Of a DNA stretch of 61,778 nt, positions 575-59,268 are shown one piece after another (position 1 is the first letter of the stretch; each line of letters opens with the position of its first letter). Below the pieces are notes generated by a model, which had not been told where the DNA came from, did not search any database, and saw nothing but the letters and a program-made list of their open reading frames with translations. This DNA is from a virus (taxonomy: Duplodnaviria > Heunggongvirae > Uroviricota > Caudoviricetes): the IMG/VR virus record IMGVR_UViG_2778261381_000005; one strand, written 5' to 3'. A program made the position numbers and the translations under genes.

Positions 575-2914
575 ATGGCAAAAGGAAAATCCGCACTGGC
601 ACTTGCTCTGAAAAAGAAAATCGGTAGCAACGACGAAATTCAGAAAGTAACTCATTGGATTGACACAGGCTTTCCTCCGTTAAACAAAGCTATTTCCGGT
701 CGTTACGATGGCGGTTTCCCATGTGGTCGTATCGTAGAAGTATTCGGGCCACCAAGCGCGGGGAAATGTGTTACCGCAGACACCATGCTGCTGACGGAGC
801 GTGGAATGGTAACAGTGAAAGAGTTGTTTGAGATTGAAGGGTACAAAGCGACATGCACTACTCGCGATGTAGAGCATAACGTTGGACTCATCAATGAAAA
901 TGGCGTGATAGAGAAGACCTCACACCTGACATGGAACAACCGTCGCAAATTCAAGCGTATTAAGCTGGCATCAGGCGGTTATATCGAGGCTACGTTCCGT
1001 CACCCAATCCGTGTGGTTGACGACTTAGGTAATGTCGTCTGGCGACATGCTGAAAAAATCAGTGTAGGCGACACGATTCCTTCAATGGTTGGCACACATC
1101 AATTCGGCGATCAGCACCTGGATGCCAATATCGCAAAACTGATGGGCTATTTAATTGCTGACGGATACGTGGCCTCTGAAAATTCAGTGAATTTTTCTAA
1201 CACAGATCCTTTCATCAAGGATGAGTACTACCGCCTCATTTCGCTGGTATCAGACAAGATGCCAGTTACGAGAAAACATAACGGCTCGGAAGACCATGTG
1301 CTGTTTAGCAAAGAGGTGCGTTCGCTGCTTTTTAAAGAATATGGTCTGGAGTATGAGAAAGCTGCTGGCAAGCAGGTTCCGTTGAGTGTGCGTCGCGCCA
1401 ATAGCGAGGCTCAAATTGCATTCCTTCGCGGCTACTTTGAGCTGGAATGCCACGTCAATGATGGTCGCTGCATTGAGGTTGTGAGCGCGAGTGGGCTGCT
1501 GCTACAGCAAATTCGCCTCATGCTCCTGAATCTGGGGATTACGTCAACTATCTCTGAAAAACACGTCGCGGGTTATGAAAATACATATTACCGGCTGTCA
1601 TTCAGTGGCTCTAATTACGACCTTTTTCTGTCAACGATTGGTTTCGAATCTCCGGCACGTTTATCAGTGGCAACCAAACGGGACATTGGTTTTGACCGCA
1701 CTTACTCAGGCTATGTTCCGCACATCAGCGGCTTAGTGAAATCACTCTACGAGTCGCTCACCAAGACCACCCGTGAAGACTACGCTCTGGTAGACCACGT
1801 TATTGGCCGCGGCGATCGTGTCGGAATAGACAAACTGCGAGAAATCTATGTCTCCTTCATTGGCAGAAAGAATCGTTTTAACGAGCATCTGTTTGCACAA
1901 CTGGCAGCGGTAATTGGCTCTAACTTGTTCTACGACGAAGTCGTGGCTATTGAGGAAGGTGAAGCACCAACGTTCGACGTAGCGATGCCGGAAACACACT
2001 CTTTCTGGTCTAACGGGATTATCAGCCACAACACATTCCTTGCAACAGCAGCGATGATCTCCGCTCAAAAACAAGATGGTCTGGCGGTATTCCTCGATCA
2101 TGAAAACAGTTTTGACGTTGGCCTGGCTGTAGCCAATGGCCTGAACGCAGATGAGGATGACGGTCAGTGGGTATACAAGCAGCCAGATACCTTCGAAGAC
2201 TCTGTAGAGTTGATCGGCACAATACTTAAATTGGTTCGTGATGAAGAGCTTATCCCCGAATCAGCACCTATCTGTATCGTGGCTGACTCTCTTGCGTCTA
2301 TGGTTCCGAACTCCAAAGCCGAGAAGTTCGAAAAGATGGCTGAAGGCACAGCCAAAGACAAAGATCAGCTAAACATGAACGACAATACGGCACTGGCTCG
2401 TGCGACGAGTGCGAACTTCCCTACTCTGGCTTTGTGGGCACGCAAATACAACGCCTGCATCATCTTCTTGAATCAGGTTCGCACAAAAATCGGTGTAATG
2501 TTTGGCGACCCTACTACGTCGCCAGGTGGAGATTCACCGAAGTTCTACGCTTCTGTACGTATCCGTCTTGGTGCATCGGTGATGAAGGATGGTAAAGAGA
2601 AGATCGGCCAGGACGTAGGCGCAGAATGCATCAAAAACAAAGTTGCACCACCGTATGGCAAATGCACCTGGAAATTCTACTTCGATCCTACTCGTGGCCT
2701 CGACGTTATCGAATCGCTCGTCGAGTACATGCTGGAAGAAGGATACCTGCCAAAGAACGCCAGCGGGCGAGTTGAAATTGGTGACAAGAAATACACCAAA
2801 TCGCAGATCGTCGAGATGTATCGGGAGAAGCCACTGGCTGAAATCATTGCGGCTTTGCAGGCAATCGACGACCGAAGAGCAAAAGACAACCCCACCGAGT
2901 CAGTAGAAGAGTAA
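575..2914 (+). CDS. RecA/UvsX-family recombinase (Sak4-like ATPase) interrupted by an intein
   Basis: RBS aaaggag 8 nt upstream; P-loop GPPSAGK then Cys...His-Asn insert, then T-FLATAAMISAQ...FLDHENSFD RecA-like core. Confidence 0.8.
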   Translation: MAKGKSALALALKKKIGSNDEIQKVTHWIDTGFPPLNKAISGRYDGGFPCGRIVEVFGPPSAGKCVTADTMLLTERGMVTVKELFEIEGYKATCTTRDVEHNVGLINENGVIEKTSHLTWNNRRKFKRIKLASGGYIEATFRHPIRVVDDLGNVVWRHAEKISVGDTIPSMVGTHQFGDQHLDANIAKLMGYLIADGYVASENSVNFSNTDPFIKDEYYRLISLVSDKMPVTRKHNGSEDHVLFSKEVRSLLFKEYGLEYEKAAGKQVPLSVRRANSEAQIAFLRGYFELECHVNDGRCIEVVSASGLLLQQIRLMLLNLGITSTISEKHVAGYENTYYRLSFSGSNYDLFLSTIGFESPARLSVATKRDIGFDRTYSGYVPHISGLVKSLYESLTKTTREDYALVDHVIGRGDRVGIDKLREIYVSFIGRKNRFNEHLFAQLAAVIGSNLFYDEVVAIEEGEAPTFDVAMPETHSFWSNGIISHNTFLATAAMISAQKQDGLAVFLDHENSFDVGLAVANGLNADEDDGQWVYKQPDTFEDSVELIGTILKLVRDEELIPESAPICIVADSLASMVPNSKAEKFEKMAEGTAKDKDQLNMNDNTALARATSANFPTLALWARKYNACIIFLNQVRTKIGVMFGDPTTSPGGDSPKFYASVRIRLGASVMKDGKEKIGQDVGAECIKNKVAPPYGKCTWKFYFDPTRGLDVIESLVEYMLEEGYLPKNASGRVEIGDKKYTKSQIVEMYREKPLAEIIAALQAIDDRRAKDNPTESVEE
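767..2032 (+). mobile_element. intein (about 422 aa) with LAGLIDADG homing-endonuclease motifs, inserted in the Walker A motif
   Basis: Begins with Cys directly after GPPSAGK, ends His-Asn followed by Thr; motifs LMGYLIADGYV and LRGYFELECHV. Confidence 0.75.
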
Positions 2915-5103: not shown

Positions 5104-5439
5104 ATGAAGGCCATCCCATTCGCGCTGTTGTTCCTTTCTTCGATCGTTGTGGCCGACACCACTGTTTATCAGTGTGAAATGTCTGTAGCCGACGTTAAGA
5201 ATGGCGCTCTTACCGACGTCATAAAAGCACCATATGGAGCGATGGTCGTAGACAGCGGCGACCAGTTCTATGTTGTGCGTGACGATCGAGTGTTGTCATC
5301 CCCATATCTCACAAATCGTAATGGCAAATTAACCGGCGTCGGAGAAGACCACTTCGTATACAACAAATACAAGGGCTTCTATGGCGTTCACGCTTCTCAG
5401 CAAAGCTACCTTTTCGATGACTGCAAGGAGGTTGGATAA
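5104..5439 (+). CDS. hypothetical secreted protein
   Basis: N-terminal signal-peptide-like segment MKAIPFALLFLSSIVVA. Confidence 0.45.
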   Translation: MKAIPFALLFLSSIVVADTTVYQCEMSVADVKNGALTDVIKAPYGAMVVDSGDQFYVVRDDRVLSSPYLTNRNGKLTGVGEDHFVYNKYKGFYGVHASQQSYLFDDCKEVG

Positions 5440-5651
5440 TGGCATTAACACTGGCAGGTCTGGAAATCGAGAAAACAAGCGGATACTGGCGTGCTAAGGG
5501 TTTCAAGCAGCCTGGCATTCTTGAGCGTCTGGAACGTGAAGATGGGTATATCGTCCACCAGCGGCGTGAATGGCGTATGTACGATCCAGAAACAGGAAAA
5601 CTGACTACAAAAGCCGGAACACTTTGGGGTCTGTTGAAGAAAATACACTAA
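5439..5651 (+). CDS. hypothetical protein
   Basis: ORF overlapping previous stop. Confidence 0.4.
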   Translation: MALTLAGLEIEKTSGYWRAKGFKQPGILERLEREDGYIVHQRREWRMYDPETGKLTTKAGTLWGLLKKIH

Positions 5652-5696
5652 ATGCAAACTGACTGCGGCACGTTCCGCAGTCATATTTCATAGTCG

Positions 5697-6231
5697 TCAC
5701 CGCTGACAGCATACACAATCAACTGCCGCTGATAGCATATCGAGAGTCTATCTCACCGCTCACAGCATACTTTACTCGATTTTTTACCGCTGACAGCATA
5801 CTTAAGACATTGCATGAATAATGTGTACCGGTATGGGTATAACCAGAACAAAATTACCGCTGGCAGCATACGAAGGTCTGACATATGCCATTAATTACCG
5901 CTGATAGCATATCCAAACAAAAATTCCTCAATAAAACACCGCTGACAGCATACGTTCTATCAGGGAGCAGCAGGCAATAAATACCTTTCACTACAAGTAA
6001 TCAGCGCAATGGGAATAGAATGTTAGTGAGCGCAAACCTATATGGAATGCACTCTTCGAGGTTAGTAACCACTGGGGAGGTATAAAAGAGCATTGAGTGG
6101 TGATAGATGATTTACCGCTCACAGCATACGTTTATCTCACTATACCGCTGGTAGCATATCTTTAACCGTTCACAGCATACTTTTCAGAAAAATAGCCGCT
6201 GATAGCATACATTTCACCGCTGACAGCATAT
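5697..6231. repeat. iteron array, about 12 copies of ~17-bp unit (C/T)ACCGCTGACAGCATAC and variants, on the 3' side of rep
   Basis: Direct repeats e.g. at 5697, 5786, 5855, 5896, 5937, 6113, 6143, 6164, 6193, 6215. Confidence 0.75.
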
Positions 6232-7325
6232 CAAAGCAGTTTGAGACTATTGGAAAGGATCTCAATCATCTTGATATTTTCAGGCGTCAAATTCTGCGAA
6301 AGTTCGGTTATCTTATTGATAATGTTCTGTTTGGCATCAATTTCCCCGGCTTTCTCATCTGGTTTTTTGGGTTCGATGTCTTCAGGTTTTGGCGGTGCGA
6401 CTTTGAGTTTTGGATTGCGGCTGTGAATCTGGATATAGATCGACCGCCCACGCTTAATCTCGCTGTATTCGAGATAGCCCAAATCTTGGAGAGCTTTTAA
6501 GCCGTTACGTATAGTCTGATTCTGCGAGCTGACATTCCTGCTACTCAAATTGAGTCGCGCACGCAATCGAGCAAGCGATACCGGCGCAGGCTTGGTTGGA
6601 AGACTTTCGATGAAGGTGTACAGAGCCTGTGCTGTTTCTTTGCGTGGTAGCTTATTGATAACCTTTAACTGCAAAAGAACCTTATGGTCAAAGCGATATA
6701 GTTCGGCCAGCTTCGGTTCTGCATAGAACACCACCGTATCTTTCTGCTCGTTGTAGTCCACGCTATTGATGAGGTGCACCATCAGAAGCGAGATCTTGTT
6801 AGAGCCGTCGACGTTCTTTTCTTCATACGTTCTCTGGAAAGACAGAGTTGTACGCATGATCTTCAAAAGACTGTTTGTAAGCCGGTCGCGGAGTGTTTTG
6901 CGGATCTGTGACGATGGATAGCCACAAAACTTCGCAAATTTCGTGATGCTTAACTCGACACGACCATTAGGTTCGCCGTATTCTGCCAGCGAACGCACAA
7001 CGCCCACCCACGTTTTGAAATCATGATCCATGTCCAGGCGAGGACCGGTTATCTTGATATCGGAATAGCCTTCAGAACGGGCTACTTCGAGCTGGACAAG
7101 CTCCTTTGAAGCATCGATCTCATTTGGCTTGTTACGTTTACTGTATTTTGTTCCCTTAAGCGTGGGGACGAACAACCCCAGTCGCATCAACGCAATTGGT
7201 TGGACTGTATTGTTGCTATTAGGGACAAGTTCCCCTGTGTACAATTCAAGGGAACCTTCTTCAAAGTTGTCGATGTTATCTTCTACTTCTTTGTTATTTT
7301 TACCTTTTTTATTTTTTGTGGACAT
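6231..7325 (-). CDS. plasmid-type replication initiator (iteron-binding Rep), tentative
   Basis: Flanked on both sides by iterons; RBS aaaggtg before MSTKNKK start; basic protein; ORF-track start at 7445 rejected because it runs into iterons. Confidence 0.55.
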   Translation of the reverse strand: MSTKNKKGKNNKEVEDNIDNFEEGSLELYTGELVPNSNNTVQPIALMRLGLFVPTLKGTKYSKRNKPNEIDASKELVQLEVARSEGYSDIKITGPRLDMDHDFKTWVGVVRSLAEYGEPNGRVELSITKFAKFCGYPSSQIRKTLRDRLTNSLLKIMRTTLSFQRTYEEKNVDGSNKISLLMVHLINSVDYNEQKDTVVFYAEPKLAELYRFDHKVLLQLKVINKLPRKETAQALYTFIESLPTKPAPVSLARLRARLNLSSRNVSSQNQTIRNGLKALQDLGYLEYSEIKRGRSIYIQIHSRNPKLKVAPPKPEDIEPKKPDEKAGEIDAKQNIINKITELSQNLTPENIKMIEILSNSLKLL

Positions 7326-7344
7326 GTGGACACCTTTGTCATTC

Positions 7345-7446
7345 AACCGCTGACAGCATACTTGATTTGCCGCTGACAGAATACCAAAAACAGTTGGCAG
7401 CATACGGTGAACCGCTGACAGACTATCAATTACCGCTGACAGCATA
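7345..7446. repeat. iteron array (5 copies) immediately upstream of rep start
   Basis: aaccgctgacagcatac, tgccgctgacagaatac, gttggcagcatac, aaccgctgacagactat, taccgctgacagcatac. Confidence 0.75.
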
Positions 7447-7494
7447 CATGAACATGACTTCAGACCAGTCGTGGCGCGGCTTACAGCGATCGGG

Positions 7495-7560
7495 GATCTT
7501 ATTTGATCTATATAAGGATCTATCTATGGATCTCTTTATTAGGATCTATCCTGTGGATAT
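7495..7560. promoter_or_regulatory. origin-like GATC cluster (5 GATC in about 52 bp) plus DnaA-box-like TGTGGATAT
   Basis: GGATCT-containing repeats at 7495, 7505, 7517, 7529, 7543; TGTGGATAT at 7552-7560 (8/9 to DnaA box). Confidence 0.5.
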
Positions 7561-7646
7561 GTGAATAATTAAAACAGGCATTTACTACCTTCGGCGCACC
7601 TGGTGGGTTATCGTTGCCTCGGCTAACAATCACAGAAAAATGACAT

Positions 7647-8291
7647 ATGGATCTAAAACGCACGCGCTGGGTTCGTCGTCTTGAAGACGGCTCCTACACT
7701 ATCGAATCAAATTCCAACCTGAATAAGCAGAAGTTGCTTTGTGACATCTGCGGTATAGCGGCGAAGTGCCCGATCTACGAAACCAGAATTAAACTTGATA
7801 AGGCTGGTGTGAATTTTCATTTAAACAGTTGCATCAGGTACGTTCCATTACTCGCATTTCGTAAACCGATCATCGGATTGGATGCTCCCTACTTCAACAC
7901 ACTCCGTTCAGGTGTGACGTGGCGAGATCGTTTATCACCAGACAAGCTGATTTGCCTCGTATCCGCAGACACAGGGAAAATCATCCGTTTTGGGAAAGTA
8001 GACAAGGTTTACTCAGGCCCAGTAGACGAAATGTTGCGGAAACACAGCCGGTTTAATCATCTCTGTATGGGTGGTGAGAAAATCGAGAAAGTAGAAGAAG
8101 TGATCCGCAAATCCTACGGACACTTTCTGACCAAAGATAGCCTGCTCACCGCAATCTACATCAGACATGTAAAACGTGAGTTCGACCTCGAATACCACAG
8201 CGAAGAAGAGCTTAACCTTGTTGACCCACGTCCAAAAGCTGGCGTCATAAGCATAAACGCAGCGCGTAAAAAGCCCACTGACGCGCTGTAA
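7647..8291 (+). CDS. hypothetical protein
   Basis: ORF adjacent to origin-like region. Confidence 0.5.
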   Translation: MDLKRTRWVRRLEDGSYTIESNSNLNKQKLLCDICGIAAKCPIYETRIKLDKAGVNFHLNSCIRYVPLLAFRKPIIGLDAPYFNTLRSGVTWRDRLSPDKLICLVSADTGKIIRFGKVDKVYSGPVDEMLRKHSRFNHLCMGGEKIEKVEEVIRKSYGHFLTKDSLLTAIYIRHVKREFDLEYHSEEELNLVDPRPKAGVISINAARKKPTDAL

Positions 8292-22679: not shown

Positions 22680-23273
22680 ATGATTGCAGCCGAAAAAATC
22701 AAACAGCGAAAGCGCGACAACTCTCTTCGTGACCTCTGGAGAACACCTGACTGGCTGTTTTCTGCCATTCAACGTTATCTTGGAGTGACATTTGATGTTG
22801 ACGTTGCCTGCAACAAGGACAATGCAAAGCTGCCTAATTTCATAGGCGTTGAGCGTGATGCTTTGAAATCTGAATGGGGACAGCCAGGTACAATTGCCTT
22901 CCTCAATCCACCCTACTCCAAAATCTCCCCCTGGATTGATGCGGCTATACGTGAGCAGGCTCGTGGAGTTACAACAGTGATGCTAATTCCTCAATCCCTA
23001 GATACAAAGTGGTATGAGCGTGCAACAGAGTGTGCGAATGAGACGATTATTCTGTCTGGTGGCCGCGTAGCGTTTGTCGAGCCTGACGTAAATCTGGGTC
23101 AGGTAGAAGTAAACATCAACCCAGGTGGCAGTATGCTCGTTGTTTTTCGAGGATTCTGTCAGGACGCTGGGCACTCTATAAGCAAGATCCCTTTGGACGT
23201 CATGAAAAGTCTGGGAGGGTATGATCCTGCGAATGTGATCAGGAAAAAAAGACCATCAAAGAAGGCTGCTTAG
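22680..23273 (+). CDS. phage Dam-like DNA N6-adenine methyltransferase
   Basis: NPPY motif (AFLNPPYSK) and overall size typical of phage Dam-family MTases. Confidence 0.65.
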   Translation: MIAAEKIKQRKRDNSLRDLWRTPDWLFSAIQRYLGVTFDVDVACNKDNAKLPNFIGVERDALKSEWGQPGTIAFLNPPYSKISPWIDAAIREQARGVTTVMLIPQSLDTKWYERATECANETIILSGGRVAFVEPDVNLGQVEVNINPGGSMLVVFRGFCQDAGHSISKIPLDVMKSLGGYDPANVIRKKRPSKKAA

Positions 23274-28684: not shown

Positions 28685-31600
28685 CTATATCTGCCCACCT
28701 ACTCCTTTGAACTTTTCAATAAACGTGACGATTTTCTGGAAAACGGTCTGTTTTTTCGTTTTATATTGCGGGTTTAACGGACTAAGTTTTGGTAATGTCT
28801 CGTTTAATTCTGTGCCATTTTCGGTGGCGTATTCGCGTTTTAAAGACGTGCGAATATAGCGTTTCGCCGCCTCTTCATTGAGATTTTCTTCTTTTATCAA
28901 TGCTTCTGCTTCACGTTGCTGTTCGCGTTGAGCAAACGTAAAGAATGCCTCAATGATACTGGCTTTGTCTGGTAAATCATCCAGGTTCGTTTGCTGAATA
29001 AAATCGACCACCAGGCCCTCTTTCGCCCGGTTCCCCAGGCTTGAACGAATTAAGCGTTTGACCTCTTCGATCATTTCGCCCTTGCCTTTATTTTGTCTGT
29101 TGTGTTCGAAAATCAGTCCAAGGATATAATCCAGGTTTATTTCCTGAGACTTCAGCAAATCGACCTCAAAAACTACGTCATCCCAGTCAGTGGTTGATTT
29201 CTCTTTTTTCTCAGCTTCTTTCTCACGGCGCTGCCAGTCGCGAATATCGTTATAGGCAGAACGATAATCCTGAATCTTGCGTTCAGCAGGGAGACGAATT
29301 GTTTGCAATTCAGCGAACTTTTCATCATCCACATAATGTTCTGCTTTGAATTTTTCTACCGCAACAGGATCGCTAAGATCGATTTGTTGCAGGGCTTTCA
29401 GCGTGGCAAATTCATCATAGTTTTGCAGGATGTTCTCGGCACGCAGGTATTCACCAAACAGTTTTACGAAGTCTTTCTTCTCTTTTTCACTTTCAATACT
29501 GGCAGGGTCAGGGAACCGTTGTTCCAGTTCTGAAACTACTGCCATAAAGCCGCGTTTAGCTTCACCAGTGGCAGCATCTGTAAAGCCTTCCATATACTCA
29601 GCATAACTCTTTTCTAACACCACATTTTTAGTATTTTTATCACCAAACAGCGTTATGGCATCAATGGTTGAGCGTTCCAGATCCCGAAAAGTGACGATGT
29701 TACCGAAGGTTTTAGTAGCGTCATAAATGCGGTTGGTACGGGAGAATGCCTGCATCAGGCCGTGAAAACGCAAGTTTTTATCGACGAATAGCGTGTTCAA
29801 TGTTGGAGCGTCGAAGCCGGTTAAAAACATCCCAACGACAATTAACAGATCGATATCCTGATTTTTAACCCGTTGGGCTAAATCACGATAGTAGTTCTGA
29901 AAACCGTTACTGTCGGTGCTGAAGTTAGTTTTAAAATAGCTGTTATACTCACGAATTGCAGCGTCAAGAAACTCTTTAGCACTGCTGTCCATTGCGCTGG
30001 TATCAAAAGTTTCATCGGAAATTTCACCAATGGCATTTTGTTCTTCATTGGCGGCAAAGGAGAAGATTGTTGCAACACGCAGCGGTTTATAGGTAGCCGA
30101 TTTATTAGCTGCTTCCTCTTGTAACCGTTTAAACGTCGCGTAATAGGCTTTCGCGGCATCCACGCTACTCACTGCCAGCATGGCATTAAAGCCTTTGGAA
30201 CCTGGGAAAGTACGGTGGGTCTTCTGGCGGAAGTTATTCAGAATATATTGCGTAATTTCCTGTATACGCATGGGATGAAGAAATGCCTGCTGATTTTCAG
30301 CCGCACTCAGTTTTTTCTCGTCGGTTTCTGTCTCTAAAGATTTAAACTGTGGCCGCACATCGTTGTAGTCCACCTTGAATTTGAGCACTTTTTCATCACG
30401 AATCGCATCGGTAATTACATACGAATGCAATTCACGACCAAATACGCTGGCGGTCGTTTCTGAGCCTAAGGCGTTTTCCGGGAAAATAGGTGTGCCGGTA
30501 AAACCAAACTGATAATAGCGTTTGAATTTCTTCTTCAGGTTTTTCTGCGCTTCTCCAAACTGGCTGCGGTGACATTCATCAAATATAAACACCACTTGCT
30601 GATTGTATACAGGCAGGTCGCTTTCTGCTTTCATCAGGTTATTAAGTTTCTGAATAGTGGTGACGATAATTTTGTTATCGTCCTTATCCAGATTGCGTTT
30701 AAGACCTGCGGTATTTTCCGAGCCGTTGACGCTGTCTGGCGAAAAACGCTTATATTCATTCATGGTCTGGTAATCGAGGTCTTTCCTGTCGACCACGAAG
30801 AAGACTTTATCAATAAAGTCCAGCTCTGTTGCCAGACGCGCGGCTTTAAAGCTGGTGAGGGTTTTACCTGAACCGGTAGTGTGCCAGATATACCCACCGC
30901 TTTCCGGTTTTGACCAGTTCTTCGCTGTAAAGGAACTCTTAATTTTCCACAGAATGCGCTCAGTGGCGGCAATCTGGTACGGTCGCATCACCAGTAGCGT
31001 TTGGCTAACATCGAATACGCTGTAGTTCACTAAGACATTAAGCAGGGTATGTTTCTGGAAAAAGGTGGCGGTAAAGTCTTTGAGGTCTTTAATCAGCGTG
31101 TTGTCTGATTTCGCCCAATTCATGGTGAAGTCAAAACTGTTTTTATCGCGCTTTGTCGTGTTGGCAAAGTAACGGGTATCGGTGCCGTTGGAAATGACAA
31201 ACAGTTGCAGATACTTAAACAGAGAATTTTCGCTGTTAAAACTCTCTTTGCTGTAACGATGTATCTGGTTAAAGGCCTCACGAATCGCCACGCCGCGCTT
31301 TTTCAGTTCGATTTGTACCAGCGGTAAGCCATTAACCAGGATCGTGACGTCATAACGGTTAGCATGAGAACCCGTCTGTTCAAACTGCTGGATAATCTGC
31401 ACCTTGTTGCGCATGAGATTCTTTTTATCTATCAAATAGATGTTCTCAAGACGCTCGTCATCAAAAATAAAGTCGCAAATATAGTCGATATGGATTTTAC
31501 GGGTCTTATCCAGGATGCCATCGCTCGGGTTATCCAGATACTGCTCCGTGAAACGCCGCCATTCGCTGTCATTAAACACCACACCATTGAGGTTCTGAAG

Positions 31601-31801
31601 CTGTTCCCGAACGTTGGCCAGCATCGCCGACTGAGATTTTACGGAAATAAATTCATAGCCCTGATTCCGCAGATCCTGAATCAGTTCACGTTCCAGGTCC
31701 GATTCGCTCTGGTAGCTGTCGCCTGTTTGCTCGGCTTTGATGTACTTATCAAGAACGATAAAGTTATTGGATTCAGCAATGGTGTGTGTCTGATGAGTCA
31801 T
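28685..31801 (-). CDS. hsdR: type I restriction enzyme R subunit (EcoR124-like, type IC)
   Basis: 1038 aa; helicase motifs TGSGKT, DECHRS, SRTNR; N-terminus resembles EcoR124I HsdR as I recall it. Confidence 0.9.
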
Positions 31802-31922
31802 AGCGCATCCTTTGTGCCGTCTGGCAAGGGCCGGAAGGGCTTTAAGGGCGACTTCCGGCGTGTAAAAAATAGTCTCTATATAGACCGGATGTTAAGGTGA
31901 TCCGGTCGGTAGCAATGGTCAA

Positions 31923-33178
<1,256 letters not shown>

Positions 33179-33182
<4 letters not shown>

Positions 33183-34741
33183 GCCTGTACCTCGCTACCT
33201 TCAATCTCAGCAACAATCGCATCAATATCTTTACGCAACTGGTCGATTTTGCTGACCGTGGTTTTCAGCTCAGCATTCAGCTCAGCGATATCGATAATTT
33301 CGCGAGTATCTTTCGCTTCCACATAGCTGCTCACCGACAGGTTATAGTCATTCGCGACAACAGTCTCAAACGCAACAGATTTCGCCAGATGAGCAACATC
33401 TTCCTTGCTGGCAAATACCTGCATAATCTGTTCGATATGAGCATCGGTCAGAATGTTGTTGTTAGTCTCTTTTTTGAACAGTTCGCTGGCATCAATAAAC
33501 TGAACTTTGGTATCCGTTTTATGTTTAGACAGCACCAGAATATTGACGGCAATAGTGGTGCCAAAGAACAGATTCGGTGCCAGTGAAATCACGGTTTCGA
33601 CATAGTTATTGTCGACCAGATACTGACGGATTTTCTGCTCCGCGCCGCCACGGTAAAAAATGCCTGGGAAGCAGACAATCGCAGCGCGACCTTTGGCCGA
33701 AAGATAGTTCAGCGCATGTAATACAAACGCAAAGTCAGCTTTGGATTTGGGGGCCAGAACGCCAGCCGGGGCAAAACGTTCATCGTTAATCAGCGTCGGG
33801 TCATCGCTGCCAATCCATTTCACCGAATACGGCGGGTTAGAAACGATGGCATCAAACGGTTTTTCATCTCTGAAGTGCGGCTCAGTCAGTGTATTACCCA
33901 GCTTGATATCAAACTTGTCGTAGTTGATGTTGTGCAAAAACATGTTCATACGCGCCAGGTTATAGGTCGTATGGTTGATTTCCTGACCAAAAAAACCTTC
34001 TTCGATGATATGGTCATCAAACTGTTTTTTCGCCTGCAACAACAGCGAACCGGAGCCTGCTGCCGGGTCGTAGATTTTGTTAACGTGGGTCTGCCCGTGC
34101 ATAGCCAGTTGTGCAATCAGCTTAGAGACGTGCTGCGGTGTAAAGAACTCGCCGCCGGACTTACCGGCATTCGCCGCATAGTTAGAAATCAGGAACTCAT
34201 AGGCGTCACCGAACAGGTCAATCTGATGTTCATGGAAGTCACCAAGTTTTAGCCCTTCAACCCCTTTCAGAACCGCAGCCAAGCGGGCATTTTTATCTTT
34301 AACGGTGTTACCCAGGCGGTTACTGGTGGTATCGAAATCAGCAAACAAACCTTTGATGTCAGCTTCTGAAGGATAACCGTAAGCAGAACTTTCGATAGCA
34401 ACGAAGATGCTGTTTAAATCTGCATTCAGTCTGTCATTAGTATTTGCTTTCGCAGCTACGTTGCAGAAAAGCTGACTGGGGTAGATGAAGTAGCCTTTAG
34501 TTTTGATGGCATCGTCTTTAATGTCATCAGTAATTACGCTGTCATCCAGTTTCGCATAACAGATACTGTCATCACCGGCTTCAATATAACTGGAAAAATT
34601 TTCGCTGATAAAACGGTAAAAAAGCGCGCCCAAAACGTACTGCTTAAAATCCCATCCATCGACTGAACCCCTGACATCGTTAGCAATTTGCCAGATCTGG
34701 CGATGAAGCTCTGCACGTTGTTGAATACTTGTCATTTTCAT
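33179..34741 (-). CDS. hsdM: type I restriction-modification methyltransferase subunit
   Basis: 520 aa; N6-adenine MTase motifs DPAAGSGS and NPPY; operon order hsdM-hsdS-hsdR. Confidence 0.9.
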
Positions 34742-49605: not shown

Positions 49606-50286
49606 ATGGATGTAAAAATCACGATTTTGCAGGTTGATGTTGCCAACCTTCGCCCGAATACCTGGAACACCAATTCGGTTGGTGCGCAGAATTTTGAAAA
49701 ACTGAAAGGTTCTATCGAAAAATTGGGCTTTTTTAAGCCAATTTTGGCTCGTGAACTTGAAGATGGATTTTTTGAAATCCTCGGCGGCGAACATCGCTGG
49801 CGTGCTGCTATTGAGCAAGGAATTTCAACGGTTCCGGTGCTTTCTGTGGGCAAAATTAGCGATGTCGTAGCTAAACAGATGTCACTGGTGGACAACGAGC
49901 GATACGGTGAAGACGACCAAATCGCATTGCAACGCTTCATTGAAGAAATTCAGTCAGAACTTGACTATCAACTGTCTGAAATCGCTCCGTATGACGACGA
50001 AATCTCGATGGTTTTAGCAAAAGAGGCGGCAATCGACCTTGAAGCACTGGAGGCGTTGTCTCGTGGTAGTGATGAGCCTGTCGATACCGACAAACGAGAG
50101 AAAACCGAACGTGTGGGTGCGGAACATCAGACCATGCGCTTCAAAGTAACTTTCGATGCGTCAGATCGTGTTGCAGAAACCATAAAAAACATCATCAAAG
50201 AGCAGGCTATTAACACCGGTAATGAAATGGAGAACGCTGGTGAGGCTCTGGTGTGGCTGGTCGACTACTACAAGGAGCGTATGTAA
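49606..50286 (+). CDS. ParB N-terminal domain protein (ParB/Srx fold)
   Basis: ILGGEHRWRAA box; first gene of four overlapping genes. Confidence 0.55.
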   Translation: MDVKITILQVDVANLRPNTWNTNSVGAQNFEKLKGSIEKLGFFKPILARELEDGFFEILGGEHRWRAAIEQGISTVPVLSVGKISDVVAKQMSLVDNERYGEDDQIALQRFIEEIQSELDYQLSEIAPYDDEISMVLAKEAAIDLEALEALSRGSDEPVDTDKREKTERVGAEHQTMRFKVTFDASDRVAETIKNIIKEQAINTGNEMENAGEALVWLVDYYKERM

Positions 50287-50954
50287 TGACCAAAAAGTTT
50301 GAAATCGTATATCGCGACCCGGCAGATCTTATTCCCTATGAGATGAATGCCAAAAAGCATGATGAACAGCAGATCCGAGATCTAGCCGCAGCCATTAAAA
50401 AGCGCGGATTTGACCAGCCAATTACGGTCGATAAGAACGACGTAATTATTACTGGCCACGGCCGCCGTGAGGCTGCAATTTTTGCTGGACTTGAGCGCGT
50501 ACCGGTTATTGTTCGCGATGATCTCAGTGATGACGAGGTTCGTGCGAAGCGCCTTGAAGATAACCGACTTGCCAGCATTGATTACGATGCAATTAAGCTA
50601 CAGAAAGAGCTTGAGTCGCTTGTTCTGGACGATATCGAGGTTTTCGGCTTTGAAGAGCGTGAGTTGAATGTTCTCGTTGGCAGTATGACAGAAGAAATGG
50701 ACACCGACTCGCTAGTTATCGATCTTGGCGAAGAAACTAAACGACAGAAGGATGAACACACCGAGATCAGTCGTGAAGTTGCAGCGGAAGAAGTACGTGT
50801 TGTCGACGTATTGGGCTTTAAAACGCTCCCTGCTGGCTCTGCCATTGTTGTTGGTGATTTGCTTGCCCATATGGAAGAAATGACGGGAGAAAGCGGGGTA
50901 GACGCATTTGTGGCATATGCGGAGAAGATCTCTTCCGGGGAGATGGCTGCATGA
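50286..50954 (+). CDS. second ParB N-terminal domain protein
   Basis: ITGHGRREAA box; TAATG overlap with previous gene. Confidence 0.55.
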   Translation: MTKKFEIVYRDPADLIPYEMNAKKHDEQQIRDLAAAIKKRGFDQPITVDKNDVIITGHGRREAAIFAGLERVPVIVRDDLSDDEVRAKRLEDNRLASIDYDAIKLQKELESLVLDDIEVFGFEERELNVLVGSMTEEMDTDSLVIDLGEETKRQKDEHTEISREVAAEEVRVVDVLGFKTLPAGSAIVVGDLLAHMEEMTGESGVDAFVAYAEKISSGEMAA

Positions 50955-51616
50955 GCAAATACATCATCAACGTATCGTTTCAGACACGCGTAAATAAAAC
51001 CACGCGCACGTTGGAAATCGCTGAGTCGTTCGGGCTTGGCCTGGACGAAAAAGAGTGGACGCTTTACGACAATCTGGAGCTGGAAGTGAAGCAGGGCGAT
51101 GTGGTGTACATCACCGGCCAATCCGGTTCCGGCAAATCCGTTGTGCTGCGCGAGTTGCAACGACAGATGAAGGATGAAGGGCTGTCTGTAGCCTCCATCG
51201 ATGATTTTACCTTCGATAATGAGGTTAACGTCATCGATCAGTTGGGCAAAACGACCAGTGATGCGCTTGGGTTGTTATCTATGGCTGGTCTGAACGATGC
51301 ATATCTGTTTGTTCGCAAGCCTTCTGAAATGTCAGACGGCCAGAAATATCGTCTCAAGATTGCCAAACTGATTGAGTCAGGCGCTAAAGTATGGGCTGCT
51401 GACGAGTTCGGCGCTGTTCTCGACCGTGTAACCGCTCAGGTTGTGGCGTCTAACCTCCAGCGTGCCGCTCGAAAGGTTGGTGCGACGGTAATGGTGGCGA
51501 CGACTCACGAAGACCTGAAGAACGCGCTGCGCCCTGATATGCAGATCACCAAGCACTACAAAGAACGCGTGAAGGTGGAATATCACAATGGTAGTCATGA
51601 TGAGGTCCATTCATGA
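50951..51616 (+). CDS. small ABC-type ATPase
   Basis: Walker A GQSGSGKS, signature SDGQKYR, Walker B VWAADEF, H-loop TTHEDL; ATGA overlap. Confidence 0.6.
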   Translation: MSKYIINVSFQTRVNKTTRTLEIAESFGLGLDEKEWTLYDNLELEVKQGDVVYITGQSGSGKSVVLRELQRQMKDEGLSVASIDDFTFDNEVNVIDQLGKTTSDALGLLSMAGLNDAYLFVRKPSEMSDGQKYRLKIAKLIESGAKVWAADEFGAVLDRVTAQVVASNLQRAARKVGATVMVATTHEDLKNALRPDMQITKHYKERVKVEYHNGSHDEVHS

Positions 51617-52503
51617 CGGACATCATCATTAAACGCTACCGCCCTGAAGAGTTTCCGCGTCATCTGGACTTTCTGGAGCGAATGACTGTTACAAAGGGAA
51701 CTGTAGAGGACTGGCACGCTCTTAAGTCGCTTCACTACAAAACAGACGGCAAACCTTTCGCGCCAACTTACTATCGCTGCGAACTTGATGACCGTCTGGT
51801 GGGCGTCGTGGTTATGGCTTACCCGAAACTACTGTTGGCACCTCGCCACCGCATGTTTCCTAAGTTGAAACCAACCACTAATACCACCGTGGCTAACCAG
51901 TACTGGGGTCGGTACGTGAATAACAACTTTGCGGTGATCAGTCGCTCAGTTGTGGATACTCAGTATCGTGGCGTAGGCGTCTCTTATAGAATGATTAACC
52001 TGGTTAGCAGGATGCATGACCGGCCAATCATTGAGATCCAGTCCTCGATGAGCAAATACAATCCCTTCGCCATGAAAGCAGGGTTTAAGTTCATCCGCCC
52101 TGAGCGACCGAAGAGCTATGAAAGTGCACTGCGTGTGTTCCAGCGCCATTTCCGCTCCGACCCGGGTGATAACGAGGCGATCGTCAAAGAGTTGTTCGCT
52201 ATGAGCGAGTCTCGTCGTCGCCGTGCGCTGCGCGATTTGGTGGCGGACTACCATAAGAACAGTTCCCTGGCAAAAGCTGGGCGGAATCGTGGCACGACGA
52301 TTCAGGACATTGCCGACAGTCTGGTGGACGAGGCCAGCATTGTGAAGCTGCTCAAGGACATTCACAACCTGAGCTTTACGTCTCCGTTGTATGGTGTGTA
52401 CCGAAACCCTGACTTTGGCCGTCGACTGCCTGACACGCTGCCACTGCTGGCATTCGACAAACAACCTTTGGATAAACCGTTAGAAATTGCTTTACCGGCA
52501 TAA
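51613..52503 (+). CDS. protein with N-terminal GNAT-like acetyltransferase fold
   Basis: QYRGVGVS (motif A-like) and NPFAMKAGFKFI (motif B-like); ATGA overlap. Confidence 0.45.
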   Translation: MTDIIIKRYRPEEFPRHLDFLERMTVTKGTVEDWHALKSLHYKTDGKPFAPTYYRCELDDRLVGVVVMAYPKLLLAPRHRMFPKLKPTTNTTVANQYWGRYVNNNFAVISRSVVDTQYRGVGVSYRMINLVSRMHDRPIIEIQSSMSKYNPFAMKAGFKFIRPERPKSYESALRVFQRHFRSDPGDNEAIVKELFAMSESRRRRALRDLVADYHKNSSLAKAGRNRGTTIQDIADSLVDEASIVKLLKDIHNLSFTSPLYGVYRNPDFGRRLPDTLPLLAFDKQPLDKPLEIALPA

Positions 52504-58347: not shown

Positions 58348-59268
58348 ATGCCAGAACAAAAGATGAAGATTACGGAAGAGGCATTTTCGGATTTTACGGG
58401 GCATATGTGCCGTGCCGGATTTACCAATTCTATCTCCGATGAACCTTTAACCGAGCGACAACAAAGTCAGCTATCTGCTTGTTTGCAGGCGGTTCCCTTC
58501 TCCCAATCCGTAAACATAACCCCGGCTTCACCGTCAGTTTTGGTTGGGAAAACTGTTCAACTTAGTGCAGGTATTACTATGGGTAAGAGTGCCAGTTCAT
58601 TCACCTGGAAGTCAGCCAATGATCAAATTGCAACCGTCAACGGCACTGGATTAGTAACTGGCGTAGCACCAGGCAAAGTGAAAATTACCGCAACTGATCA
58701 GGAAACCCAGCTTTCCGCGTCAGTGGAAGTCACCGTAAATCCGGTAGCCGTTCAATCCGTAACGGTAACGCCAGACTCAACCTCTGTTGAGAAAGGGAAA
58801 TCAGTCAGTCTGAAAGCGAATGTTCAGCCGTCAAATGCGACGAATAAGGCAGTTACTTGGTCTTCCAAAAATGAAGACAAGGCAACGGTAGACCAGAGCG
58901 GGAACGTTACTGGTGTAGAAGTTGGCACTGCGACGATTGAGATCGTTTCCCAAGATGGCAGCAAAAAGGGAACTGCAACGGTGGAAGTAACTGCGCCTGT
59001 TGTGGCTGTTACCGGCGTCGAAATCGACCCAAATAGCACAACCGTTGAGGCAAACAAAACTGTTCAGCTGACCGCAAATGTCGAGCCGGCAGGAGCAACA
59101 AATAAAACCGTTACTTGGGAATCCAAAAATACCGAGTTTGCAACGGTGGATAGCGAAACCGGTGTTGTAACTGGCGTTGCGGCTGGTACTGCCACAATCG
59201 AGGTTACTACCCAAGATGGTAGCCACAAAGCGACAGCGACCGTAGAAGTCACTGCTGCACAGGAATAA
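58348..59268 (+). CDS. Ig-like (Big_2) repeat protein, probable head decoration protein
   Basis: Three ~90-aa repeats (VTP...VTGV..GTATIEV); RBS aggag. Confidence 0.7.
   Translation: MPEQKMKITEEAFSDFTGHMCRAGFTNSISDEPLTERQQSQLSACLQAVPFSQSVNITPASPSVLVGKTVQLSAGITMGKSASSFTWKSANDQIATVNGTGLVTGVAPGKVKITATDQETQLSASVEVTVNPVAVQSVTVTPDSTSVEKGKSVSLKANVQPSNATNKAVTWSSKNEDKATVDQSGNVTGVEVGTATIEIVSQDGSKKGTATVEVTAPVVAVTGVEIDPNSTTVEANKTVQLTANVEPAGATNKTVTWESKNTEFATVDSETGVVTGVAAGTATIEVTTQDGSHKATATVEVTAAQE

Follow-up and report, generated by a model that had tools for sequence, protein, structure and literature searches.

How is the phage genome sampled here kept in its host as a plasmid? The question is raised by a minus-strand gene with arrays of short, co-oriented repeats on both sides, found in a stretch of 61,778 nucleotides from a member of the Caudoviricetes (hereafter the window, meaning the whole stretch analysed). 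The region 5700-7568 is the plasmid-maintenance origin of a known E. coli phage-plasmid of ~110 kb, and the window belongs to the SSU5 supergroup of phage-plasmids, whose replicon is ordinary and already known from earlier catalogues. Judged by its sequence, the locus is very probably a plasmid-prophage replicon of the theta type under iteron control, homologous to oriR/repA/incA of phage P1 and to RepFIB replicons.

The central gene encodes a putative iteron-binding initiator of 364 aa (rep, 6231..7325 on the minus strand, ATG side 7325) from the P1 RepA/RepFIB branch of Rep_3. A first-pass annotation had already placed a rep gene of this length here and had made the proposal depend on a resemblance of the protein to initiators; both the open reading frame and the resemblance stand, since the Pfam search identifies Rep as Rep3_N (PF01051, WH1 domain) above the cut-off (E 3.9e-9) and the protein is a homologue of P1 RepA. 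The BLASTP alignment with P1 RepA has 46% identity (E 3e-86) and covers RepA residues 20-284 of 286, tblastn ties Rep to P1, P7 and SSU5 (48% identity with SSU5 RepA), and all 120 of the homologues listed carry PF01051, many of them named RepA or RepFIB. The part homologous to P1 RepA comprises Rep residues 32-309, so that Rep differs by ~30 extra N-terminal residues and by a C-terminal extension of 55 aa (residues 310-364), consisting of a disordered linker and a helical hairpin. Searching the AlphaFold model of Rep with Foldseek retrieved RctB (probability 1.0, E 5e-8), RepE (1.0, E 1e-4) and pi (0.97) as well as WH1 chains, at 12-14% sequence identity and with TM-scores of 0.35-0.53, modest values that follow from the moderate confidence of the model (mean pLDDT 71). 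Rep is accordingly predicted to share the WH1-WH2 fold of the solved Rep_3 proteins F RepE, R6K pi and Vibrio cholerae RctB (domains 2-3), a fold that it combines with homology to the RepA proteins of P1 and RepFIB. A phmmer search of Rep against PDB chains returned no match, and the NCBIfam search no curated model. The 404-aa version of Rep in RefSeq is probably wrong, its start at 7445 falling within an iteron.

The repeats around rep are 17 copies of a 16-bp iteron within 5700-7568 (RTATGCTGTCAGCGGT in the direction of rep), 12 downstream of the gene and five upstream. Their numbers and places agree with the first-pass annotation (12 at 5700-6230, 3' of rep, and five at 7347-7446, 5' of rep), and its length of ~17 bp is close to the value from the information profile, in which the conserved core measures 16 bp and is nearly invariant at 16 positions. 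Searched as CCGCTGACAGCATA on the plus strand, this core occurs 17 times with at most three mismatches within 5700-7446 and 16 times with at most two, the copy at 7391 having three. Over the whole window, 22 matches with at most three mismatches were found against 4.2 +/- 2.0 expected, a number reached by none of 100 shuffles, and no copy with at most two mismatches exists in the 61.8 kb outside the flanks of rep, to which the 17 iterons are confined.

Upstream of rep, the five iterons form an origin array of the incC type (7346..7448, minus strand; cores starting at 7347, 7370, 7391, 7412 and 7433) with spacings of 23/21/21/21 bp, i.e. two helical turns, compared to 22/21/21/21 bp for the five iterons of P1 incC. 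The 12 downstream iterons, all oriented like rep and like the origin iterons, constitute an incA-like array on the minus strand in two blocks, a proximal one of five (6114..6232; cores starting at 6115, 6145, 6166, 6196 and 6217) and a distal one of seven (5699..5954; 5700, 5726, 5756, 5787, 5857, 5898 and 5939). The last iteron of the proximal block abuts the rep stop codon at 6231, as iteron 9 of P1 incA abuts the stop codon of repA. An iteron-free gap of 162 bp (5953..6114, minus strand) separates the blocks, and the replicon is closed distally by a bidirectional terminator-like hairpin called on both strands (5660..5683; 9-bp stem with six G-C pairs), located between the last iteron and a convergent plus-strand ORF (5439-5651).

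The other parts of the origin are described here outwards from the rep start, on the minus strand. A degenerate DnaA-box-like 9-mer, GTGTCCACA (7/9; 7325..7333), overlaps the rep ATG and is a weak assignment; relatives have better boxes there (GTATCCACA in both Salmonella and Klebsiella, ATATCCACA in the relative with 61% identity), and P1 has CTATCCACA at -27. By transferring the annotated P1 promoter PrepA (TTGCTA-N18-TAGGAT) onto the phase-aligned iterons, we placed a candidate rep promoter at 7358..7387 (-35 TTGGTA at 7387-7382, 18-nt spacer, -10 AAGTAT at 7363-7358), which brackets the fourth iteron. It matches the consensus weakly (7/12), and an automatic consensus scan detected no promoter on the minus strand among these iterons. 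Beyond the iterons, a GC-rich spacer conserved with P1 (7449..7487; GCCGCGCCACGnCTGG) leads to a GATC cluster (7488..7550), a candidate element for unwinding and for sensitivity to Dam and SeqA, which is AT-rich (62-75% A+T) and contains six GATC sites in 59 bp (7488, 7495, 7505, 7517, 7529 and 7543). The first-pass annotation had counted five sites within ~52 bp; five do lie at 7495-7546, but the full cluster is larger by one site. No other site in the window holds at least four GATC per 80 bp, where ~0.34 would be expected.

The outer edge of the origin is marked by two tandem DnaA-box-like 9-mers on the minus strand (7552..7568), TTATTCACA at 7568-7560 and ATATCCACA at 7560-7552. The box at 7552-7560, which reads TGTGGATAT and matches the DnaA consensus at 8/9 positions on the minus strand, had been noticed before, whereas the abutting second box (7560-7568), which fits the relaxed consensus TTWTNCACA, had been missed. 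Both are imperfect, and as the window holds 28 boxes at 8/9, a single one is not significant alone; the pair matters because it is located where P1 has its own tandem pair (TTATCCACA and TTATCCACT).

This brings us to the likeness with P1, which the first-pass annotation had drawn from the layout (incA, repA, incC and a Dam-sensitive origin) and which the comparison supports. The annotated P1 record runs from two DnaA boxes over five Dam sites and five incC iterons with PrepA inside to repA and to incA, which abuts the stop codon, and the window has a counterpart of every part of this replicon (oriR incC, repA, incA; IncY), a candidate one in the case of PrepA, in the identical order. Aligned at the nucleotide level, the segment of DnaA boxes, GATC heptamers and GC-rich spacer is identical to P1 oriR in 96 of 129 columns (74%; z ~12.7 against shuffles), and each of five AGATCnn heptamers, as well as CGATCGC, has its own partner among the heptamers of P1. 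GATC sites number five in P1 and six here. As Rep is 46% and the origin core 74% identical, the P1-like layout reflects homology and not mere resemblance. The differences are minor. P1 has nine downstream iterons, six of them inverted, compared with 12 co-oriented ones split by the gap, so the geometry of iteron pairing may differ from that of P1. The iterons themselves are not the same (GATGTGTGCTGGAGGGAAA in P1 versus RTATGCTGTCAGCGGT), and a different incompatibility specificity is therefore expected. Apart from the Rep extension, a further difference concerns partition, since parAB-parS directly follows incA in P1 while the partition genes of our element are not adjacent to the replicon. 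Both P1 and the window element are temperate phages kept as plasmids, each with its own adenine methyltransferase. In all else the two phages are unrelated, ours being an SSU5-like siphovirus and P1 a myovirus.

The same architecture recurs in Salmonella (92% Rep identity), in Klebsiella (85%) and in the relative with 61% identity, and a similar one in SSU5 and a Providencia relative. Conservation of the rep-iteron module extends over at least five genera. The iteron sequence shifts with Rep divergence, as expected of a cognate pair of initiator and site, and the GATC cluster is conserved in Salmonella, Klebsiella, Rosenbergiella, the 61% relative and SSU5. At the Rosenbergiella locus (78% Rep identity), de novo discovery did not recover the iterons, an AT-rich seed having won, yet the origin core with its DnaA boxes and GATC cluster is kept. 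In SSU5 itself, Rep is 48% identical, the iterons differ and run in both orientations downstream of rep, and the origin core is duplicated in tandem. Among the IncFIB-type replicons of the SSU5 supergroup (pECOH89/p09EL50, “IncpKPHS1”, SSU5/pHCM2), the window is a member without essential difference, and surveys report that typing tools place the rep genes of this group under IncFIB. Klebsiella members (“IncpKPHS1”) possess the iteron sequence and origin core of the window, and the Klebsiella locus has eight downstream iterons; the published description of IncpKPHS1, which mentions only four iterons downstream and does not recognise a Rep domain, under-describes this locus.

The residence of the element as a plasmid is documented in genome collections. 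A search through 5,426 complete E. coli genomes recovered its replicon from 115 of them, at 363 places of which every one is on a plasmid and none on a chromosome, the carriers being circular replicons of ~110 kb, and a search of PLSDB retrieved 207 matching plasmid records. The replicon DNA is ~99% identical to the E. coli phage-plasmids p09EL50 and pECOH89 and to PhiR41_1, a near-identical DNA that was deposited as a phage with MG1655 as host. A terminase large subunit gene lies within the window, and the annotation of p09EL50 includes genes for capsid, portal and tail; phage and plasmid functions are thus united on one extrachromosomal replicon, and the plasmid lifestyle supposed in the first-pass annotation is documented. 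Flanking genes, too, match those of SSU5 (a 70-aa ORF, a 111-aa ORF, an SPFH protein and a metallophosphoesterase). The two plasmids have been described as phage-like, with RepA, parA/parB and dam, with RepA of pECOH89 reportedly identical to that of p09EL50, and were tied to SSU5 and pHCM2 (PMC3999498). A literature search on PhiR41 and pSLy3 yielded nothing useful, and the “pO111” plasmid of a 2026 preprint on O111 is unrelated to this replicon.

Partition and methylation genes lie outside the replicon. Two proteins with a ParB_N domain and an ABC-type ATPase (50253-51616) were set aside as partition genes, as they adjoin the terminase. A better candidate is the operon of a small ParA-type ATPase on p09EL50, beyond the window. 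The Dam-like methyltransferase proposed at 22680-23273 is well founded: this 197-aa protein (plus strand, outside the replicon) matches the Dam-family N6-adenine DNA methyltransferases PF05869 (E 2.5e-38; 131.8 bits, cut-off 28.1) and TIGR01712 (E 5e-33; 113.9 bits, cut-off 97.05). Rfam (5400-7800, E <= 1) revealed no known RNA and hence no sign of antisense-RNA control, and the GC-skew and cumulative-skew profiles follow the direction of transcription, with no origin-specific switch, and add no independent evidence for an origin.

By homology with P1, monomers of Rep would bind the five phased iterons at 7346-7448, while host DnaA would bind the tandem boxes at 7552-7568. Together they would open the adjoining AT-rich GATC heptamers (7488-7550), where the host replisome would load. 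Opening probably requires that all six GATC sites be fully methylated by Dam, and the hemimethylated sites would probably be sequestered by SeqA just after replication, which would limit re-initiation. By occupying the origin iterons, Rep would probably repress its own gene as well, at the candidate promoter among them. The twelve downstream iterons (5699-6232) would serve as the locus of copy-number control and incompatibility, titrating Rep and pairing with the origin iterons (“handcuffing”), a process that Das and Chattoraj reportedly described for P1 in 2004. We infer each of these biochemical steps, as well as the low copy number of the element, from experiments on P1. Origin opening by DnaA together with RepA, and the control of Rep monomers by chaperones, have been described for P1 (PMC5043065).

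How far the methylation step carries over is the point on which the scheme might most plausibly fail. The replicon could work as described with Dam-independent initiation, its heptamers being kept as inherited DNA-unwinding sequence or for reasons independent of SeqA. Dam control of this origin is argued from sequence homology, one P1 heptamer (AGGTCCA) lacks GATC and yet P1 works, which means that individual sites are dispensable, and in Providencia and the proximal SSU5 copy, which are more distant, the GATC clusters are fewer or looser. Nevertheless, the six sites in 59 bp are the sole such cluster in the window, their spacing (~7-14 bp) has stayed similar in P1 and in every close relative although the iterons have turned over, and Dam dependence is reported in the literature both for P1 and for REPI, a RepFIB replicon. 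We therefore consider Dam-independent initiation unlikely and methylation-controlled initiation, by analogy with P1, the preferred reading.

A control layer that P1 lacks might exist in addition, through either the array gap or the phage methyltransferase, but this is improbable. The gap contains a conserved single-copy motif of ~15-19 bp, CCCCAGTGGTTACTAACCTCG (6057-6077, minus strand). Its core (CCAGTG-N3-ACTAAC) is found a single time 3' of rep in the window itself, in p09EL50 and PhiR41_1, in the relatives from Salmonella and Klebsiella and in SSU5, which retains it despite its diverged Rep and iterons; P1 lacks it. A second factor, encoded by phage or host, could bind this motif and modulate iteron pairing. 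The predicted Dam-family enzyme, whose link to the origin is conjecture, could methylate the six GATC sites, so that the replicon would function in Dam-poor hosts or escape sequestration by SeqA on induction. If true, either would couple plasmid copy number to the lysis-lysogeny state. This longer motif is the only noteworthy element of the gap. A palindrome there, GGTTAGTAACC, was rejected as a special element because it is neither enriched nor clustered in the window; its 20 matches (at most two mismatches) exceed the 9.7 expected largely because a palindrome counts on both strands.

Three further readings fare worse. It is quite improbable that the module also, or instead, serves as the origin of lytic (vegetative) replication, even though no lytic origin was identified in the element and the replicon sits among early and DNA-metabolism genes (SbcCD-like nuclease, NrdAB, RecA). 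P1 uses the homologous oriR for plasmid maintenance only and has another origin for its lytic replication; moreover, arrays of iterons that come with a control locus serve to hold copy number down, and the DnaE, DnaB-like helicase, toprim protein and ligase encoded by the near-identical plasmid fit a separate lytic machinery. We regard it as very improbable that the downstream array is mainly something other than a copy-control locus, be it a site that acts like a centromere or organises the nucleoid, a block against transcription from the convergent plus-strand genes or a reservoir for origin repair. Such a role would suit its departures from P1 incA (12 instead of nine iterons, uniform orientation, a conserved iteron-free gap with a conserved 19-bp motif) and a variable iteron number among relatives (12, about 10, eight and six, and nine in PhiR41_1) that suggests weak constraint on the exact number. 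Against it, the downstream repeats have the 16-bp sequence of the origin and should thus bind the same Rep, the array begins right at the stop codon of rep, just like P1 incA, and a separate ParA-type ATPase operon exists elsewhere on the near-identical plasmid. That the module is a decayed relic, with another function maintaining the element, is scarcely credible, as this has no specific support while the rep ORF is intact with a strongly conserved WH1/WH2 core, the iterons are nearly invariant, the module persists across genera and the annotation of the 109-kb p09EL50 includes no second plasmid initiator.

The value of a plasmid-maintenance origin mapped in this way lies mainly in annotation, i.e. 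in exact coordinates for the origin, the iterons and the control array and in the likely true start of Rep, which corrects a RefSeq ORF that extends into the iterons. Better maps aid replicon typing, the prediction of incompatibility, curing strategies and the building of mini-replicons. A natural polymorphism, moreover, offers a simple test of whether iteron number sets copy number, as PhiR41_1 lacks exactly three iterons of the distal block through an iteron-to-iteron deletion of 87 bp, leaving nine downstream iterons instead of 12. For the biology of the family there is little that is new: what maintains a widespread group of ~110 kb phage-plasmids of E. coli, Shigella, Salmonella and Klebsiella, among them some with CTX-M-15, is an origin directly homologous to that of P1.

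The 2.1-kb replicon region is 99% identical to circular plasmids of about 107-127 kb from E. coli and Shigella, including p09EL50 (E. coli O104:H4), and at least 80% of it was recovered in 115 of 5,426 complete E. coli genomes, where all 363 matching places were on plasmids and none on the chromosome. In PLSDB, 207 records match the region, nearly all of them non-mobilizable. The same DNA occurs in Escherichia phage PhiR41_1 (99.7% identical; listed host MG1655), a terminase large subunit is encoded in the window, and the near-identical p09EL50 carries capsid, portal and tail genes. Given plasmid and phage evidence on the same DNA, the element is therefore a known phage-plasmid, and the lifestyle proposed by the first-pass annotation is supported. 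A genome announcement (PMC3999498) reports that the RepA of pECOH89 is identical to that of p09EL50 and links these “phage-like plasmids” with pHCM2 and phage SSU5, with parA, parB and dam in common; surveys assign elements of this kind to the SSU5 supergroup, their rep genes being filed under IncFIB by typing tools.

Direct reading of positions 5300-8000 and a repeat finder both gave a single dominant repeat family, an iteron with the core CCGCTGACAGCATA (plus strand) present in 17 copies between 5700 and 7446. Core matching places 12 of these downstream of rep (5700-6230) and five upstream (7347-7446, start-to-start spacing 23, 21, 21 and 21 bp), on both flanks as originally described. Mismatches number at most two in 16 of the 17 copies and three in the copy at 7391, and the information profile across all copies delimits a conserved core of 16 bp, RTATGCTGTCAGCGGT in the rep direction, close to the first estimate of about 17 bp. 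Elsewhere in the 61.8-kb window there were no copies with two or fewer mismatches; allowing three gave 22 matches window-wide against 4.2 ± 2.0 expected, a count reached in 0 of 100 shuffles. The downstream array forms blocks of five and seven iterons divided by a 162-bp gap. In PhiR41_1, an 87-bp iteron-to-iteron deletion (equivalent to window 5700-5786) has removed exactly three downstream iterons, leaving nine versus 12, apparently through recombination between iterons; the phage is otherwise 99.7% identical.

Beyond the upstream iterons, six GATC sites (7488, 7495, 7505, 7517, 7529 and 7543) fall within 59 bp, one more than first counted, in a segment with 62-75% A+T that is the sole site in the window where an 80-bp span holds at least four GATC, against a background of 0.34. 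The DnaA-like 9-mer noted initially is present at 7552-7560 (TGTGGATAT, 8/9), and since the window holds 28 such 8/9 boxes, a lone one carries little weight; it is abutted by a second 9-mer at 7560-7568 (TGTGAATAA), whose minus strand fits the relaxed consensus TTWTNCACA. Another, degenerate DnaA-like 9-mer overlaps the rep ATG (7325-7333), a position at which relatives have better boxes, the P1 box being at -27. Transferring the P1 repA promoter (PrepA) onto the phase-aligned iterons yields a candidate rep promoter, TTGGTA-N18-AAGTAT (7387-7358), around the fourth iteron; the match is weak and was not reported by an automatic promoter scan, so we can only infer that Rep regulates its own synthesis. 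The initial observation is confirmed in every detail and modestly extended.

Read in the direction of repA, the annotated P1 record runs from a DnaA site (two tandem boxes) through five Dam sites, five incC iterons and repA to nine incA iterons, with 21-bp spacing in incC, PrepA hexamers between its iterons and the first incA iteron abutting the repA stop. The window presents the same series of parts, and Rep is 46% identical to P1 RepA (BLASTP, E 3e-86, RepA residues 20-284 of 286), in line with the proposed P1 oriR layout. Between the DnaA boxes and the first iteron, 96 of 129 alignment columns are identical, including the block GATCCCnGATCGnTGnAnGCCGCGCCACGnCTGG, with a score 12.7 SD above 500 shuffles. 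The heptamers of the window (AGATCCT, AGATCCA, AGATCCT, AGATCAA, AGATCCC, CGATCGC) pair one-to-one with those of P1 (AGATCCA, AGGTCCA, AGATCCC, AGATCCA, AGATCCC, TGATCGT). To judge from this alignment, the cis-acting origin DNA shares ancestry with P1, beyond a likeness of layout. Differences from P1 are the iteron sequence, the five-plus-seven division of the downstream array, six GATC sites instead of five, terminal extensions of Rep, and the orientation of the downstream iterons, six of nine being inverted in P1 whereas 12 of 12 are co-oriented with the origin iterons here. Further, unlike in P1, no parABS adjoins the replicon in the window; p09EL50 encodes a 222-aa ParA-type ATPase and a 117-aa partner away from the replicon, outside the window.

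The rep gene is the sole long ORF between the iteron arrays (minus strand, 7325-6231). RefSeq/PGAP proteins of 404-405 aa begin inside the first upstream iteron (7445, adding window 7326-7445), whereas the start at 7325, seven bases past AAAGGTG, gives 364 aa and agrees with the P1 alignment, the Shine-Dalgarno sequence and the phage record; the RefSeq start likely needs correcting to 7325. The same start-codon choice explains why lengths in the Rep database cluster range from 364 to 407 aa. The RefSeq product name for the ORF is “RepB family plasmid replication initiator protein”, and an HMM search, as suggested at first pass, matched the initiator domain Rep3_N (Pfam WH1 domain, E 3.9e-9). 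PF01051 was found in 120 of 120 listed database homologues, many named RepA or RepFIB, and tblastn against phages recovered SSU5 RepA (48% identity) and P1/P7 RepA. An AlphaFold model (36-sequence alignment, mean pLDDT 71, confident at about residues 70-305) resembles, by Foldseek, RctB domains 2-3, RepE, pi and WH1 domains. Compared with P1 RepA, Rep has about 30 additional disordered N-terminal residues and a 55-aa C-terminal addition, in which a Pro/Lys-rich linker, predicted to be disordered, leads into two helices modelled with confidence.

We compared loci from Salmonella (92% Rep identity), Klebsiella (85%), Rosenbergiella (78%), a 61% relative, Providencia (53%), SSU5 and P1. DnaA-like boxes followed by five or six GATC at 7-14-bp intervals occur in the first four, and phased iterons 5' of rep with a further array from the stop codon in Salmonella, Klebsiella and the 61% relative; the iteron search recovered none in the Rosenbergiella locus. 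SSU5 and the Providencia relative have the same general layout, with GATC sites looser or fewer in some copies. The iteron sequence is constant down to 85% Rep identity, changed at 61% (TATTCTGTAGGCGGT) and different again in SSU5, Providencia and P1, a pattern that would be expected of a cognate protein-site pair. Downstream iterons number 12 in the window, about 10 in Salmonella, eight in Klebsiella, six in the 61% relative and nine in P1. For the Klebsiella sister group “IncpKPHS1”, the published account lists four iterons 3' of repA and reports no known Rep domain, which falls short of the sequence content. In SSU5 (2230-2937), the origin core is tandemly duplicated 5' of repA, the set of DnaA box, GATC cluster and iterons recurring about 375 bp away, and downstream iterons are in both orientations. 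The Rosenbergiella contig (59-2238) carries a P1-type parA-parB (PF08775 ParB) divergently adjoining the origin, an arrangement that the E. coli group lacks, and replication and partition modules have therefore been shuffled within the family.

Within the iteron-free gap (5953-6114), the minus strand carries a single-copy motif of ~19 bp, CCCCAGTGGTTACTAACCTCG, at 6057-6077. The region 3' of rep has one copy, and no more, of the motif core CCAGTG-N3-ACTAAC in the window, p09EL50, PhiR41_1 and the Salmonella and Klebsiella relatives. SSU5 also has a single copy there, in inverted orientation, even though its Rep and iterons have diverged. Across the entire 109-kb p09EL50 the core is unique, and it was not found in P1 or three other relatives.

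A P1-like mechanism is most likely for this replicon, by homology. Rep monomers bound to the five origin iterons would act with DnaA at the flanking boxes to open the AT-rich GATC region, which would then permit loading of the host replisome. Dam methylation is probably needed for initiation, and the Dam of an E. coli host is sufficient for that methylation. The methyltransferase predicted initially (22680-23273, plus strand) belongs to the Dam family by domain matches; its action at the origin is conjecture. SeqA probably sequesters the hemimethylated origin, a step reportedly based on work by Brendler and colleagues in 1995. The downstream array would hold down copy number via titration and handcuffing (Das & Chattoraj 2004, as cited). 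A review (PMC5043065) states that in P1 DnaA alone can begin opening, with RepA a great aid, and that Rep monomer supply is under chaperone control, and a Dam requirement is supported by the titles of Abeles & Austin 1987 and Gammie & Crosa 1991.

Elsewhere in the window, a 779-aa RecA-like protein (575-2914, plus strand) is interrupted by an intein with a LAGLIDADG homing endonuclease (RecA 3e-36, LAGLIDADG_3 2e-17, Intein_splicing 2e-11), a form shared with PhiR41_1, while the p09EL50 gene is intein-free (~357 aa). At 28685-34741 (minus strand), a 1038-aa ORF encodes the R subunit of a type I restriction enzyme (domains HSDR_N, SWI2_SNF2 and EcoR124_C) and is followed by two large minus-strand ORFs (419 and 520 aa) that may be S and M subunits; p09EL50 has other genes annotated at this position, and the locus therefore looks like variable defence cargo. 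Just 5' of the terminase (50253-52503, plus strand) lie a ParB_N-domain protein (50253-50954, 233 aa, Pfam), an ABC/AAA-type ATPase (50951-51616, 221 aa, Pfam) and a 296-aa ORF with no Pfam match, matching in position two ParB-domain proteins and an ABC ATPase annotated in p09EL50; from their location, they probably do not form the plasmid partition system. A 306-aa ORF (58348-59268, plus strand) consists mostly of Big_2 Ig-like repeats (E 1.7e-68), and a decoration or Ig-domain capsid protein would fit better than the “major capsid protein” annotated there in p09EL50.

The replicon family is thoroughly studied, and the element, sequenced, typed and described since 2012-2014, is already known. 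What is added is an exact origin map, a likely correction of the Rep start, a natural polymorphism in iteron number and a small conserved motif.
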